DNA of 64,000 bases, from NCBI GenBank assembly GCA_934090735.1, contig CAKOJR010000001.1, forward strand, positions 90,984 to 154,983, in the 5' to 3' direction. Below, in pieces: positions 30,536 to 35,676 of this stretch. The position numbers were made by a program, and so were the translations under genes. The notes beneath the pieces are model-generated. The model was not told where the DNA came from and ran no database searches. It saw only the letters and a program-made list of their open reading frames with translations. This DNA is from an uncultured Bacilli bacterium (lineage in GTDB: Bacteria; Bacillota_I; Bacilli_A; RF39; UBA660). The first letter of the stretch is position 1, and each line of letters begins with the position of its first letter.

Positions 30536-30564
30536 TTGCAAAAAAATATCAAGTTTGTTATAAT
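30536..30564 (+). promoter_or_regulatory. Sigma-A promoter of the four-gene operon
   Basis: TTGCAA, 17 nt spacer, TATAAT with an extended -10 (TGTTATAAT). Confidence 0.65.
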
Positions 30565-30589
30565 TTTTAATAGAATAGAGGTAGGTTAG

Positions 30590-31726
30590 ATGATATGCGA
30601 TTTATATAGTTCTTACTATGATTATAAAGTACGAACCTTAAACGAATATACCTTAGCTCTAAGTAAAATTATTGGAATAAAAGAAAATAAACTATTTAAT
30701 AATCAAAGACTTCGTAATGATTTTTGGCCATTTGTAATAAAAGACTATTTGAATAGATATGTTGATGGTGTTCCATTAAATAAATACTTAGTAAAAGGAT
30801 TTTTAAATGATAGAGAGATTCAAGTTTATGAGTTAAATAATGAAGTGATGAGTGTTATTGATTATTTAATTAATAAAAGTATGATTTTAGATACTGCTAG
30901 GTATAAAGAGAGTATTATATTAGCAGGATTTATTTTAAAGATAGCAAATACGATTGATATATTAACAAGTCCTTTTACTAAAAATCAAAATAATTATAGT
31001 ACGCTTTGTATTAATGCTATTAATGAGGCTAATAAAATTAAATATATTAATTTGATTGATGATGGCAAAAAAGAAACTAATAAACTTTTAATTAAAGTTA
31101 AAGAGAATGTTAAGAGAGAAAGAAAGTTTTTTGAAAGTTTAACAAGTGTTAGTTCATTTAATAAGTATATAGATATTTCTAAGGAAAATATTTATTATCT
31201 TGCACAGTATAATTATCGCATACCTAACCTAAATAAGTACGATGAATATGCGGTTAAAGATATATATGATAACTTAGGAGTGGATGATGCTTTTGCTTTG
31301 ATTAGTGCTAATTTGATGGTATCTAGTGAACTTAAGTTGTTTTCAATAAGAAGACCTTTAAAAATATTATTTTTACCTCTTAGAAAAAGTTTTTTTGATA
31401 ATGAGAAGAATGTCAAAGAGTTAAGTATGTTATTTAAAAATAATAAATTACATAGGTATATAAAGATTTTAGTTAATTATAATGAAGCTAAAAAAGAAGT
31501 AATAAATTTACTTAAAAGATATAAGTTAGATTATTATTTATATTGTAGTCGTAATAGTGAAGCTACTACTGGTAAGTTGATTAATGATGTTAATAATTAT
31601 TTAGTTAGTAAAGAGTTTTACGATAATAATAAGAATATTATATCTAAATGGAAAAATTTAGGTGTTAATATAATAAAAGAAGAGTTTGATGGTATTGTAA
31701 CAGATACTCGCTTACTTGTAGATTAG
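30590..31726 (+). CDS. Hypothetical cytoplasmic protein (first gene of the McrB-like operon)
   Basis: 378 aa with no TM and no motif recognised. AGAGGTAGG RBS. Confidence 0.6.
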   Translation: MICDLYSSYYDYKVRTLNEYTLALSKIIGIKENKLFNNQRLRNDFWPFVIKDYLNRYVDGVPLNKYLVKGFLNDREIQVYELNNEVMSVIDYLINKSMILDTARYKESIILAGFILKIANTIDILTSPFTKNQNNYSTLCINAINEANKIKYINLIDDGKKETNKLLIKVKENVKRERKFFESLTSVSSFNKYIDISKENIYYLAQYNYRIPNLNKYDEYAVKDIYDNLGVDDAFALISANLMVSSELKLFSIRRPLKILFLPLRKSFFDNEKNVKELSMLFKNNKLHRYIKILVNYNEAKKEVINLLKRYKLDYYLYCSRNSEATTGKLINDVNNYLVSKEFYDNNKNIISKWKNLGVNIIKEEFDGIVTDTRLLVD

Positions 31727-31742
31727 AAGGGAAGAGAAAATT

Positions 31743-33264: not shown

Positions 33265-34362
33265 ATGGATTTCAGTTTACTTGTTAAAGATATTCCAAAG
33301 GATGAATTAGAACTTTTTCTTAAAAAAACTGATAGTAGTATAACTGCTAAGAAAAGTATAAATAAAGTAGCAATTGATTATGGTTGGGTAGATGTATTAG
33401 ATGAATCAATTCCGTATTTAGATAATATTATTCGTAATCCAAGAAGGTTTATTGCTCAAGAAGAAGATATTATTCCAATCGAAAAGACTAAAAAAGTATC
33501 TGAAGAATCTATCAAACATTTAGCAACTCATACTCAGTTAATTCAAGAAGTAGATGAAGATGGAATGGTTAAGCCTTTAAAATTATTAAATATTTTTAAA
33601 GAAGAAACTATTGATTTATATGAAAACCGTTTCATCTATTCTCTTATAACGAATCTTTATGTTTTCTTAAGAAATCAGCTTACTTATGAGGAAGAAGAAC
33701 AAAATAATAAAGAAGAGAAGAAGATAACTTATGAAGCTAATACTAAGGTAAATGGTGAAGATGTTAATATTTCAATGTGTATTTCAGCTAACAAGGAGGA
33801 TTCTTCTAAAGAAGATCCTAAGGTAATAGAGGAACGTAAAGAGAAGATAAAAAATATAAAAGAAGTTCTAGAAGGCTTTATGGCTAGTAAGTTTATGAAA
33901 ACGATGGCTAATGCTACGCCAGTTAGAAGTCCGATTAGAAAAACAAATGTTATTTTAAAAGAACAGAACTTTATTAAAGCACTTGCTTTATGGGAGTTTT
34001 TAGAAAAGTATCAAATTGAAAAGCCAGTTAAGAGGGAAGAATCTGAAACTGACTTAAATTATAAGAATTTAAAGCATAATTTAGGAGTTTCTTATTATGT
34101 AAATTATAATTTACTTGAGGATACAATTAAAGGTAATGGTAAAGATTCATTATCATATGGAACTGATATTATTGAATCAGTTAGAAATTATGCAAGAAAG
34201 TTTATGGTAAATGAAATAGATTTGAAAAAAGAACTTGATAAAGAAATTAAGCTTGCAACAAAATATAAAGAAGAACAAATTACAAATATTAAGGGAATAT
34301 ATAGAACATTTTTGGATTCTAATAAATCCCGCTTTGATAAAGCTATTTCCATACTTAGATAG
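33265..34362 (+). CDS. McrC-N-terminal-like / DUF2357-like partner protein with no recognisable nuclease motif
   Basis: Immediately follows the McrB-like NTPase. IRNPRRFIAQEEDIIPIEKTKKV...LYENRFIYSLITNLYVFL resembles the N-terminal region of McrC-type partners (recalled, not searched). The C-terminal half is K/E-rich and helical. No PD-(D/E)xK seen. Confidence 0.45.
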   Translation: MDFSLLVKDIPKDELELFLKKTDSSITAKKSINKVAIDYGWVDVLDESIPYLDNIIRNPRRFIAQEEDIIPIEKTKKVSEESIKHLATHTQLIQEVDEDGMVKPLKLLNIFKEETIDLYENRFIYSLITNLYVFLRNQLTYEEEEQNNKEEKKITYEANTKVNGEDVNISMCISANKEDSSKEDPKVIEERKEKIKNIKEVLEGFMASKFMKTMANATPVRSPIRKTNVILKEQNFIKALALWEFLEKYQIEKPVKREESETDLNYKNLKHNLGVSYYVNYNLLEDTIKGNGKDSLSYGTDIIESVRNYARKFMVNEIDLKKELDKEIKLATKYKEEQITNIKGIYRTFLDSNKSRFDKAISILR

Positions 34363-34371
34363 GAGGCTCTT

Positions 34372-35658
34372 ATGAGTAAGAAGAAAAAAGTTAATCCATT
34401 AATTAATTTTAGAAGACAAGAAATTGATTTAGTTAAATTTAATGAGAAGACTGATAAAGAGCAAAAAGAACAAATTCAAAAGTTACTTGAGGATGCGTAT
34501 GGTGATAGTCTTAAAATTGATCGTAAATATGTAATGAAAGTGTTGAGGCTAACATGGAATCCTAAAGATGATTTTACATATTTACCTTATAATTTAAAAG
34601 TTACTAAAGATAAGTTAAATTTATCATTTGAGGTTGTGAAGAAGAAACCAATACCTTTAGGATTAGTAATCTTTTTGATTTGGTTATTATGCTTTGCAGT
34701 AATTGGAGCTACATATTATGGTATAAAGTATGTTAGATTAATGGGGTTAAATAAAGATATAGATGGTGATGGTATTGCTGATATTAATATTGATTTAGAT
34801 AATGATGGTACAGCAGATATTAATATAGATACTAATGGTGATGATAAACCGGATCTTAATATTGATTATAGACATAATCAGAAGTCTACTTTTAATATAG
34901 ATACAGATGGTGATGGTTTTGCAGATTTTAATATAATAAATGATGCTACAGAAAATCCTAAAGAATGCCGTATAAATTGTGATACTGACGGAGATGGATG
35001 GCCTGAAATTAATATAGATTTAGATGGAGATGGAGTGCCAGATACAAATATTGATACTGATAATGATGGTATACCTGATTTGAATTTAGATATTGATGGT
35101 GATGGTAAGTGCGATTTGATGTGTGATACTAATGGTGATAATAAGTGTGATGAAAAGTGTATAAAGCCAGAAGATGGTGTTATAGATGATAAGGGTAATA
35201 TAAAGGAGCCTGAAAATCCAAATAAAGAACAACAAGGTGATGGTGATACTGATGCTTCTACACCTACATTAATGCTTAATTTTGTAGATGGTGGTAAGTT
35301 AATTGTTGATGATTTATTCCCAGATGATCAGCCTGGTATGGAACCAATATATCCGACTAAAGTGTTCTATATTGAGAATTTAAGTGCTGTTGCAATTAGA
35401 TATAGTCTTAAATTAGAAGTTGATACAAATACATTTACTTCAAGTAATCTTAAGTATAAATTAGAGGGTACGAATGGTGGAGTTACACTTGATTATCGTA
35501 CTGTGCCAAAGGGTACAAGCTTTATTGCAGCAGATATTATAGTAGCACCTAGAGTAACTCAAAAATATACAATGACTTTTAAACTACAGGGCACTGGGAC
35601 ACCTCAAAATGAGGATCAAGGTAAAGTATTTGAAGGAAAAATAGATGTTGAGTTATAA
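34372..35658 (+). CDS. Single-pass membrane protein with DxDGDG calcium-binding-type repeats and a C-terminal beta-sandwich domain
   Basis: TM at aa ~93-119. About ten repeats of the form D(I/T)DGDGxxDxNID (nt ~34753-35157). The C-terminal domain (VFYIENLSAVAIRYSLKLEV...KYTMTFKLQG) resembles the N-terminal module of the two large exoproteins. Confidence 0.7.
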   Translation: MSKKKKVNPLINFRRQEIDLVKFNEKTDKEQKEQIQKLLEDAYGDSLKIDRKYVMKVLRLTWNPKDDFTYLPYNLKVTKDKLNLSFEVVKKKPIPLGLVIFLIWLLCFAVIGATYYGIKYVRLMGLNKDIDGDGIADINIDLDNDGTADINIDTNGDDKPDLNIDYRHNQKSTFNIDTDGDGFADFNIINDATENPKECRINCDTDGDGWPEINIDLDGDGVPDTNIDTDNDGIPDLNLDIDGDGKCDLMCDTNGDNKCDEKCIKPEDGVIDDKGNIKEPENPNKEQQGDGDTDASTPTLMLNFVDGGKLIVDDLFPDDQPGMEPIYPTKVFYIENLSAVAIRYSLKLEVDTNTFTSSNLKYKLEGTNGGVTLDYRTVPKGTSFIAADIIVAPRVTQKYTMTFKLQGTGTPQNEDQGKVFEGKIDVEL

Positions 35659-35676
35659 AGCACTTTTGTGCTTTTT
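35658..35676 (+). terminator. Rho-independent terminator of the four-gene operon
   Basis: AAGCAC-TTTT-GTGCTT followed by TTT(C)T. Confidence 0.65.

Follow-up and report, generated by a model that had tools for sequence, protein, structure and literature searches.

McrBC is a textbook restriction enzyme. Among relatives of its GTPase, Bell et al. (eLife 2024; PMC11090510) named a group, CoCoPALM, in which McrB GTPases of the NxD type are fused to an FtsB-like transmembrane (TM) helix and coiled coil, are accompanied by McrC homologs, and are associated with signal peptidases and pilus assembly; the naming takes up three sentences without analysis and defers to a 'forthcoming publication'. According to the same paper, the nuclease is often missing from the McrC homologs that accompany coiled-coil NxD GTPases (PMC11090510). 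A literature search found neither a follow-up paper on CoCoPALM nor a paper on the defence candidate PDC-M26, and the supplement texts on CoCoNuT systems do not mention CoCoPALM. A further McrB family member, PcdA, was exapted to division-plane selection in Staphylococcus aureus (PMC10602043). Here we analyse a cassette of four genes, P1-P2-P3-P4, built around a membrane-anchored McrB-family GTPase. It lies in a stretch of 64,000 nucleotides, 'the window', from an uncultured Bacilli bacterium (GenBank assembly GCA_934090735.1, contig CAKOJR010000001.1, positions 90,984 to 154,983 of the forward strand).

A model's earlier reading of the DNA letters, made without database searches (the sequence-only reading), had described the cassette as a McrBC derivative rewired to the cell envelope and had placed it in no named system. 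The first of these ideas was right, given the McrB homology and membrane anchor described below. The second was wrong: the architecture corresponds to CoCoPALM as named by Bell et al. (PMC11090510), and the system is therefore not undescribed. In the window, the CoCoPALM type takes a reduced, clade-specific form without an adjacent signal peptidase. On balance, the locus is probably a chromosomal, vertically inherited GTPase machine of the envelope or of surface structures and not a restriction enzyme.

The P2-P3 core

P2 consists of an amphipathic segment (residues 15-37), a TM helix (54-78), a coiled coil (approximately 88-120) and a GTPase module (approximately 140-497). Its best match among PDB sequences was McrB (6hz4, E = 1.7e-4, phmmer), and alignment of the P2 family profile with the GTPase domain of Escherichia coli McrB gave a probability of 96.6% (E = 5.6e-10 over 178 columns, hhalign), in agreement with the McrB ancestry proposed by the sequence-only reading. 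On Pfam AAA_5, P2 itself scored below the cutoff (17 versus 22 bits) and longer relatives passed. An alignment of 23 diverse relatives placed GISGTGKT (G209-T216) and LLDEMN (D280, E281) on invariant or near-invariant columns. Even among relatives with as little as 31% identity, N340 and D342 do not vary, and residue 343 can be D, E or Q; the resulting N-x-D-[D/E] signature is the one by which Bell et al. define the NxD branch (PMC11090510). All three motifs quoted by the sequence-only reading, GISGTGKT, LLDEMNISRVEYYF and GTINNDDS, fall on invariant columns of the family alignment. These data identify P2 as a predicted McrB-family GTPase of the NxD clade with intact active-site motifs.

The N-terminus of P2 is of a different kind from that of McrB. 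No DNA reader domain was found in P2; residues 1-140 are occupied by the amphipathic segment, the TM helix and the coiled coil, consistent with the suggestion that the reader had been swapped for a membrane anchor. The plural 'TM helices' of the sequence-only reading was slightly overstated, as there is one strong helix, and segment 15-37 is weaker and amphipathic. A basic cluster lies between the TM helix and the short coiled coil, and region 88-120 is heptad-rich. Sub-threshold profile matches of this N-terminus were to FtsL (12 of 32 members), FtsL_2 (12 of 32) and DivIC (6 of 32), with best E-values of approximately 1e-3 to 6e-3, and an alignment with E. coli FtsB was in register but weak (E = 1.8e-3, probability 15%, hhalign). 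The TM helix and the short coiled coil, which is FtsB/FtsL-like, are predicted to hold P2 at the cytoplasmic face of the membrane.

More than 8000 homologs of P2 are detectable. Clustering at 50% identity gave 728 clusters with E < 1e-30, the conserved module being residues ~140-497, and a scan with a single genome for each species confirmed at least 597 stretches. The length of P2 is constant across these species, which are uncultured Bacilli ('Tenericutes', Erysipelotrichaceae) and Clostridia (Oscillospiraceae, Acutalibacteraceae, Christensenellaceae, Ruminococcus).

P3 starts 22 nucleotides 3' of P2 and scored 31 bits on Pfam DUF2357, the McrC N-terminal domain (cutoff 23.3 bits); an ortholog from one of the other clades described below, clade B, scored 46.9 bits. 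Pfam PF09823 was precomputed for nearly all of the 120 P3 homologs among the matches listed, each of about 365 residues. In every one of 46 species-level loci flanked by 5 kb or more on either side, P3 stood beside P2, as it did in 71 of 74 loci with at least 1.5 kb downstream. The AlphaFold2 model of P3 (predicted local distance difference test score, pLDDT, 75.9) has a long beta-hairpin 'stalk' (148-179) and a long C-terminal helix (317-364). This helix is the sole coiled-coil candidate in the P3 of the window; Clostridial orthologs, of 550-984 residues, have clear coiled-coil inserts. Beyond DUF2357, P3 matched no nuclease or other domain in Pfam, NCBIfam or PADLOC, and its invariant columns hold no conserved D...(D/E)xK, although an unrecognisably degraded nuclease fold remains possible. 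P3 is predicted to be an obligate McrC-N-terminal-domain partner of P2 that lacks a nuclease. The sequence-only reading had anticipated both aspects, a McrC-type partner and no visible nuclease motif, and the DUF2357 match, the 46/46 co-occurrence with P2 and the lack of a detectable nuclease agree with it.

The gene neighbourhoods of the P2-P3 pair were compared by clustering all open reading frames (ORFs) of 86 loci, named L001 onward. The neighbourhoods are of three types that track the P2 tree as clades A, B and C. Clade A, to which the window belongs, has P1-P2-P3-P4. In clade B, P1-P2-P3 is preceded by a giant surface protein, SipW-type peptidases and several secreted proteins, and is followed by further peptidase and secreted proteins. 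Clade C, from Clostridia, begins in some loci with a true EAL gene; secreted proteins and a peptidase come before P2, and a long coiled-coil P3 and further secreted proteins after it. Clades B and C together make up the majority of loci. Within clade A, P2 sequences are 56-76% identical, and those of Bacilli share about 50% identity with those of Clostridia; P3 (35-58%) and P4 (35-61%) both diverge faster.

A SipW-type peptidase was found within 12 kb in 41 of the 46 well-flanked loci, where the P2-P3 core lies in clusters that also encode secreted 'AWF' proteins. The five without one all belong to clade A and include the window. The window's clade mostly lacks adjacent SipW or 'AWF' genes and has P4 added; some clade-A loci (L001-3, L007, L004-6, L016 and L020) do have a SipW-type peptidase. 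According to the sequence-only reading, conservation in Tad or pilus loci only would point to an assembly accessory. In spirit this is what was found, in the form of SipW and secreted-protein clusters, but Tad genes specifically are not the common factor. The peptidase cluster (c0) is an archaeal/SipW-type signal peptidase I (TIGR02228, E ~1e-21), and one secreted cluster (c3) has a borderline match to the SipW-dependent signal peptide (18.1 bits, cutoff 19). A 'TxAWF ... WxEG' signature is common to the secreted partner proteins. Surface filaments are built from SipW-dependent TasA/BsaA proteins (PMC11580942), and the secreted partners, with N-termini reminiscent of TasA/camelysin, are putative TasA-like fibre subunits. 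The mention of McrB in that paper, on Clostridium perfringens BsaA, proved to be just an E. coli genotype (PMC11580942).

Clade-B loci such as L059 (5767-16525) have three to four paralogous SipW-type signal peptidases and at least six secreted 'TxAWF...WxEG' families, and L054 (87-5918) encodes a protein of about 1900 residues rich in 'YGG/FGG' repeats. These clade-B clusters look like an undescribed surface-fibre system of gut Bacillota. Six metagenome-assembled genomes (L017, L035, L041, L068, L069 and L033) are labelled Muribaculaceae, Bacteroidales, Bacteroidaceae or Acidaminococcus fermentans; these labels are probably taxonomic mislabels or reflect bin contamination.

P1, P4, the leader and the chromosomal setting

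P1 comprises a helical N-terminal domain (residues ~1-185) and a C-terminal degenerate EAL-like TIM-barrel (~185-378). The AlphaFold2 model (pLDDT 87.3, predicted template modelling score 0.85) was compared with the PDB using Foldseek, and all 50 of the 50 best matches were EAL domains, among them Bd1971, MorA, FimX, YahA and RocR, with a probability of ~1.0 and a target-normalised TM-score of up to 0.54. None of 35 members of the P1 family matched Pfam EAL (PF00563), the P1 profile matched no PDB sequence, and full-length P1 aligned insignificantly with the cluster of true EAL proteins from related loci (c10; probability 5%, hhalign), which itself passes PF00563 with E = 7e-47. A hidden Markov model (HMM) of the P1 C-terminal domain matched this cluster weakly. 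The alignment is collinear and was inspected for the canonical catalytic set (EAL Glu, Asn, ExxE, DDFG, Lys, EGVE, Gln); catalytic positions are replaced, with P263, N296 and C/S in place of DD. The model and this alignment indicate that P1 has a catalytically degenerate EAL-like fold and therefore that it would be at most a receptor-type domain. The 378-residue protein had been described as having no recognised motif; this stands for sequence-level families, and the fold emerged from the predicted structure. P1 is the fastest-evolving of the four proteins (22-45% identity). Either P1 or a true EAL protein was present in 40 of the 46 loci. FimX is a cyclic di-GMP (c-di-GMP) receptor in type IV pilus control.

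The true EAL proteins of clade C, in L039 (5381-6136) and 18 other loci, also seem to have lost several canonical catalytic residues: the EAL triplet is missing, NDFG often stands in place of DDFG, and EGVE is replaced by DG(I/V). Judged by these substitutions, they may bind c-di-GMP as receptors and not cleave it as phosphodiesterases.

P4 has a basic cytoplasmic N-terminal tail (residues ~1-93), a TM helix (~94-112), a repeat region with Cys pairs (129-265) and a beta-rich C-terminal domain (~295-428). The motif D-x-[DN]-x-[DN]-G occurs seven times, once every 12 residues (36 nucleotides), so that the earlier description of a single-pass protein with an array of DxDGDG-type repeats was accurate. 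DxDxDG repeats are classical Ca2+-binding loops. Family searches with P4 returned low-complexity D-rich matches only, and full-length P4 matched the partner clusters through TM segments alone (hhalign). At the domain level, the HMM of the P4 C-terminal domain was weakly similar to two families of secreted partners (c6 and c7). P4 is confined to clade A, with 7 of the 46 well-flanked loci and 21 loci overall. A 606-residue bitopic protein in L039 (6149-7969, cluster c37) has the same layout with a different repeat, an array of 'SDVTRY/SDITRY' hexapeptides between the TM helix and the C-terminal domain. A 737-residue protein of the c15 family (7512-9725) was considered as a relative of P4, a relationship that was not confirmed; its adjacency is mere synteny, because its neighbour (5848-7485) is RNase J.

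The four ORFs lie on the plus strand, in the order P1-P2-P3-P4, with gaps of 16, 22 and 9 nucleotides (Table 1). The sequence-only reading had outlined an isolated operon of four tightly spaced genes with a near-consensus promoter and a terminator on either side. Its gene layout, its promoter and its downstream terminator, which a scan for hairpins recovered, were all confirmed; the upstream terminator is a real, conserved hairpin but proved to be more than a boundary, as it ends a separate RNA unit. This unit is a PGK RNA motif (Rfam RF03040), matched over model positions 1-92 of 92 with 81.8 bits against a gathering cutoff of 50.8. It lies 126-171 nucleotides 5' of P1 in all close relatives (L001-3, L007, L008). 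A metagenome scan with a strict, lineage-biased pattern for PGK RNA gave nine matches, and in 8 of the 8 that could be assessed the motif was directly 5' of a P1 ortholog. No pgk gene was found in the 64-kb window, and a search for literature on the PGK motif found nothing usable.

The hairpin that follows the PGK RNA, overlooked by the GC rule of the terminator scan, forms a 14-bp stem followed by a T-run in both the minimum-free-energy and the centroid folds. It ends the PGK-RNA unit rather than the Tad operon further upstream, which has its own terminator. The hairpin is kept in L001 and L008, where inner-stem changes are compensatory. Its apical UUAUCAG is the exact reverse complement of the loop of the PGK 3' hairpin, CUGAUAA, in the window, L001 and L008, and this complementarity may provide a kissing loop or an alternative-pairing switch. 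Promoter-like matches were no more frequent in the window than expected by chance (51 found versus 48 expected from shuffles). The -35 element, the extended -10 element and the ribosome-binding site are nevertheless kept in the orthologous leaders of L001 and L008, despite a variable spacer before them. The order of the leader is PGK RNA, terminator, conserved promoter and P1, and we infer that P1-P4 are transcribed from the operon's own promoter. The PGK RNA may be a read-through attenuator or a separate small RNA; both are possible because the conserved promoter stands between the terminator and P1.

In four of the close relatives (L001-L003 and L007; 6590-8847), a DUF87/HerA-FtsK-like ATPase of 585 residues is encoded directly 5' of the PGK RNA and P1. 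A protein of about 690 residues with a P4-like C-terminal domain (HMM E = 3e-14) is likewise encoded directly 5' of the PGK RNA in these loci. Downstream there are two secreted paralogs of 197 residues, a polytopic protein that ends in a signal-peptidase domain, and a protein of the DUF5305 family.

The GC profile of the window is flat (~0.29). Flanking genes are housekeeping genes that differ by lineage: in the window they are a Tad cluster, a carbamate-kinase-like gene and putative germination genes, and elsewhere mraZ-rsmH-ftsL with a penicillin-binding protein (PBP); RNase J and FtsW are further neighbours. The Tad-type pilus cluster immediately precedes the cassette, an adjacency specific to the window's species group. 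The cassette was considered as a Tad-pilus accessory, and this was rejected on the grounds of its entirely different flanks in other genomes. A horizontally acquired island was likewise rejected, in view of the flat GC profile and of the distance of the relatives found on mobile elements. On plasmids, phages and IMG/VR contigs, relatives have less than 40% identity only and match in the GTPase region alone.

A 238-residue protein with no Pfam family also precedes the Tad genes. The listed GTG start of the amino-acid-kinase-family gene overlaps the operon terminator, and an ATG lies ten codons downstream (MNKKIVIALGGNA, ~35695); the gene more likely starts at this ATG. The putative GerK-type germination genes, recognised by eye, would suggest that the organism is a spore former. 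Clade-A loci that stand beside division or cell-wall genes are L004-6, L012, L015, L016, L009-10 and L013.

Table 1. Positions of the cassette, its leader and neighbouring features in the window
Feature	Coordinates	Strand	Remarks
tRNA gene	18441-18511	+	Rfam
FtsW/RodA/SpoVE gene	18871-19917		
Tad-type pilus cluster	21698-30133		
Cys-rich secreted protein	22411-25815		1134 residues; no Pfam family
Membrane protein	25832-26281		149 residues; no Pfam family
RcpC/CpaB-like	26454-27275		
TadA/CpaF ATPase	27288-28415		
Two polytopic TadB/C-like proteins	28427-30117		
Tad operon terminator	30114-30133		
PGK RNA motif, Rfam RF03040	30377-30467	+	Candidate cis-regulatory or small RNA; 126 nucleotides upstream of P1
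Intrinsic-terminator hairpin and T-run	30491-30523	+	Ends the PGK-RNA unit; 14-bp stem
Sigma-70-type promoter, TTGCAA-17-TGnTATAAT	30536-30564	+	10/12 consensus match plus TG extension
P1	30590-31726	+	378 residues; cytoplasmic
P2	31743-33242	+	499 residues; predicted membrane-anchored McrB-family AAA+ GTPase
P3	33265-34362	+	365 residues; predicted DUF2357 (McrC N-terminal-domain) partner without nuclease
P4	34372-35658	+	428 residues; bitopic membrane protein
Operon-end terminator-like hairpin	35657-35674	+	7-bp stem, 3 GC pairs, T-rich tail (scan)
Amino-acid-kinase-family gene	35668-36627		Pfam AA_kinase; by eye carbamate-kinase-like
Three genes, by eye GerK-type spore germination receptor operon	36614-40002	-	Polytopic B, lipoprotein C and 464-residue A subunits
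tRNA gene	43090-43162	-	Rfam

Possible roles of the cassette

By analogy with McrBC, P2 would form a hexameric ring, and insertion of the P3 stalk into this ring would trigger GTP hydrolysis. The energy would be spent at the membrane on assembling, anchoring or remodelling surface proteins or fibres, and not on moving a nuclease along DNA. Candidate substrates are P4 in clade A and SipW-processed TasA-like subunits in the other clades, and P2-P3 might play a part comparable to the one that the PilB/TadA ATPases play when pili are assembled. P1, or the true EAL protein, could act as the regulatory input, possibly sensing a nucleotide second messenger, and the upstream PGK RNA unit may modulate transcription. 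Surface assembly is the most economical model because the nuclease and the reader are absent, the ring would be tethered to the membrane, and the company kept by the genes is one of signal peptidases and exported proteins. The more far-reaching proposal is that P2-P3 is a new GTP-driven assembly or secretion motor, at work in hundreds of gut Bacillota species, which would drive or gate the polymerisation of SipW-processed TasA-like fibres and, in the window's clade, P4 display; it would be controlled by a nucleotide second messenger that the EAL or EAL-like protein senses and, in the window's lineage, by the orphan PGK RNA in the manner of a riboswitch. We put this forward tentatively, as a possibility that is more doubtful than probable.

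Several points weigh against a role in the envelope or at the surface. No member of the P2-P3 group has been studied experimentally. In the 64-kb window there is no SipW/S26-type peptidase and no 'AWF' protein, so that the link to fibres comes from homology to relatives only. The secreted partner families had no match in Pfam, NCBIfam or the PDB beyond the one borderline SipW-signal match, and the 'TasA-like' label derives from an N-terminal motif together with that match. P3 had no match in the PDB by single sequence, by a 65-sequence profile or by Foldseek of its AlphaFold2 model, and its profile had no direct similarity to E. coli McrC (hhalign). The EAL assignment of P1 is at the level of fold only, with modest Foldseek E-values (5e-4 to 7e-2). 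Furthermore, the wider NxD/CoCoNuT branch is regarded as defensive, and the PADLOC model nearest to P2 stands for a candidate defence system; conservation and the chromosomal setting speak against defence but stop short of ruling it out.

An anti-phage or abortive-infection module, already raised by the sequence-only reading, would be a membrane-sited, CoCoNuT-like derivative of Type IV restriction in which P4 or pili report contact with phage or damage to the envelope and P2-P3 triggers a putative effector, acting for example by membrane disruption or by shutdown of the pilus or receptor. P2 does belong to the NxD branch of McrB proteins, whose characterized relatives serve restriction or defence, and it matches the PADLOC candidate PDC-M26A with E = 4.5e-41. 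The match is partial, however, covering profile positions 312-431 of 724, which is the GTPase core only, and it scores similarly across the whole P2 family. No PADLOC model was matched by P1, P3 or P4, by their orthologs or by any of the P3 relatives tested, and none of the other components of PDC-M26 was matched. P1 and P4 evolve fast, as expected of conflict sensors, pili and fibres are common phage receptors, and distant relatives of P2 occur on plasmids and on a few phage contigs. On the other hand, no effector domain (nuclease, protease, pore or NADase) was found in P1-P4, and neither defence genes nor integrases were found among the neighbours, although no integrase or repeat search was aimed at the tRNA flanks. 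The flat GC profile and housekeeping neighbours are of a piece with this, as are the very strong conservation of P2 at constant length and the co-evolution of the module with its own cluster in three clades. The case for defence thus comes down to ancestry, seen in the NxD branch and the PDC-M26A similarity, and to the fast evolution of P1 and P4. Overall the defence proposal has found no positive support, and we consider it unlikely.

A role in division or cell-wall morphogenesis, like that of PcdA, would place the FtsB/FtsL-like anchor at the divisome or at peptidoglycan synthases, with P3 as activator and P4 as a wall-spanning partner. The resemblance of the P2 N-terminus to FtsL, DivIC and FtsB in architecture, with its weak profile matches, points in this direction, as does genomic context in clade A: 12 of 23 clade-A loci have a class-B PBP no more than 10 kb away, compared with 2 of 64 others, mraZ-rsmH-ftsL-pbp is directly upstream in 6 of the 23, FtsW/MraY-like genes are nearby in others, and the window itself has an FtsW/RodA/SpoVE gene. 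PcdA supplies a precedent for exaptation of McrB (PMC10602043). PcdA, however, carries EVE domains, its active site is degraded and it lacks an McrC partner (PMC10602043), whereas in P2 the active site is intact and the partner obligate. Clades B and C, and hence most loci, lie in clusters of SipW and secreted-protein genes and not in dcw clusters, and the dcw adjacency in clade A may be inherited synteny. We regard the division role as rather improbable. Transmembrane signalling is more improbable still. Here Ca2+ or a different extracellular cue, sensed by the P4 ectodomain, would be passed on to a P2-P3 switch, with output through P1 to second messengers, as might be suggested by the Ca2+-loop motifs of P4, the EAL-like fold of P1 and the true EAL genes of relatives. 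P4, however, is found in one clade only (7/46 loci) and P2-P3 is universal, P1 lacks the EAL catalytic residues, no output domain can be identified in the cassette, and AAA+ rings of the McrB type are motors rather than switches.

The cassette is a case of exaptation: the motor of McrB and the half of McrC that activates it were kept, with the active site intact, the nuclease and the DNA reader are gone, and the motor has become membrane-bound. If the surface-assembly reading is true, the cassette would stand for a new class of envelope motor and, after PcdA, for a second time that McrB was exapted independently; if the more far-reaching motor proposal were also true, a restriction-enzyme chassis would be a functional analogue of the PilB/TadA ATPases. 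Were the defence reading true instead, the cassette would be a membrane-sited immune system with an effector yet to be named. The module is highly conserved and is present in gut Bacilli and Clostridia, in no fewer than 597 species-level genomes, and the literature on it consists of one three-sentence naming in 2024. What is new here is the link to EAL and EAL-like proteins, and so possibly to c-di-GMP, the quantified P2-P3 core with its co-evolving clades, the clade-A form with P4, and the PGK RNA.

Comparison with described systems

With E. coli McrBC the cassette shares the AAA+ GTPase core, with its Walker A, Walker B and Nx(x)D motifs, and a partner of the McrC-N-terminal type encoded immediately downstream. 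It differs in lacking the ADAM/DUF3578 reader and the PD-(D/E)xK nuclease, in being membrane-anchored, and in having NxD in place of NxxD. CoCoNuT and PDC-M26 systems are closer in the GTPase, which is of the same NxD branch and also has a coiled coil on its N-terminal side, and in McrC homologs that often lack an active nuclease. The tandem nucleases, CnuA, CnuE, CnuH and RNA-binding domains of those systems are, however, missing from the cassette, and the coiled coil of P2 is short and follows a TM helix. PcdA of S. aureus is likewise a McrB-family protein exapted to an envelope-associated role. In contrast to P2, it has two EVE domains and a degenerate Walker A motif, and it has no C-terminal helical bundle, McrC partner or TM anchor.

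P1 resembles FimX and LapD in its EAL-like fold without catalytic residues, and its position beside surface-appendage genes is FimX-like. Unlike them, P1 has no Pfam EAL match, its c-di-GMP-binding residues are not demonstrably kept, and its helical N-terminal domain has no known relatives. The sipW-tasA and sipW-bsaA operons are comparable to the relatives of the cassette in combining SipW-type peptidases with several 'AWF'-type secreted proteins; these operons have no McrB/McrC-like pair, and the secreted proteins of the relatives are not recognisable as TasA by sequence.

CoCoPALM is the closest of the described systems. The window departs from it in the compact P3 of 365 residues, in having no signal peptidase within 64 kb and in the addition of P4, and the published description contains no EAL or EAL-like component, P4 or PGK RNA. 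In common with CoCoPALM, the cassette has an NxD GTPase fused to a TM helix and a coiled coil with a DUF2357 McrC homolog directly 3' of it, its relatives lie among genes of the signal-peptidase family, and the McrC homologs of the Clostridial relatives carry coiled-coil inserts.

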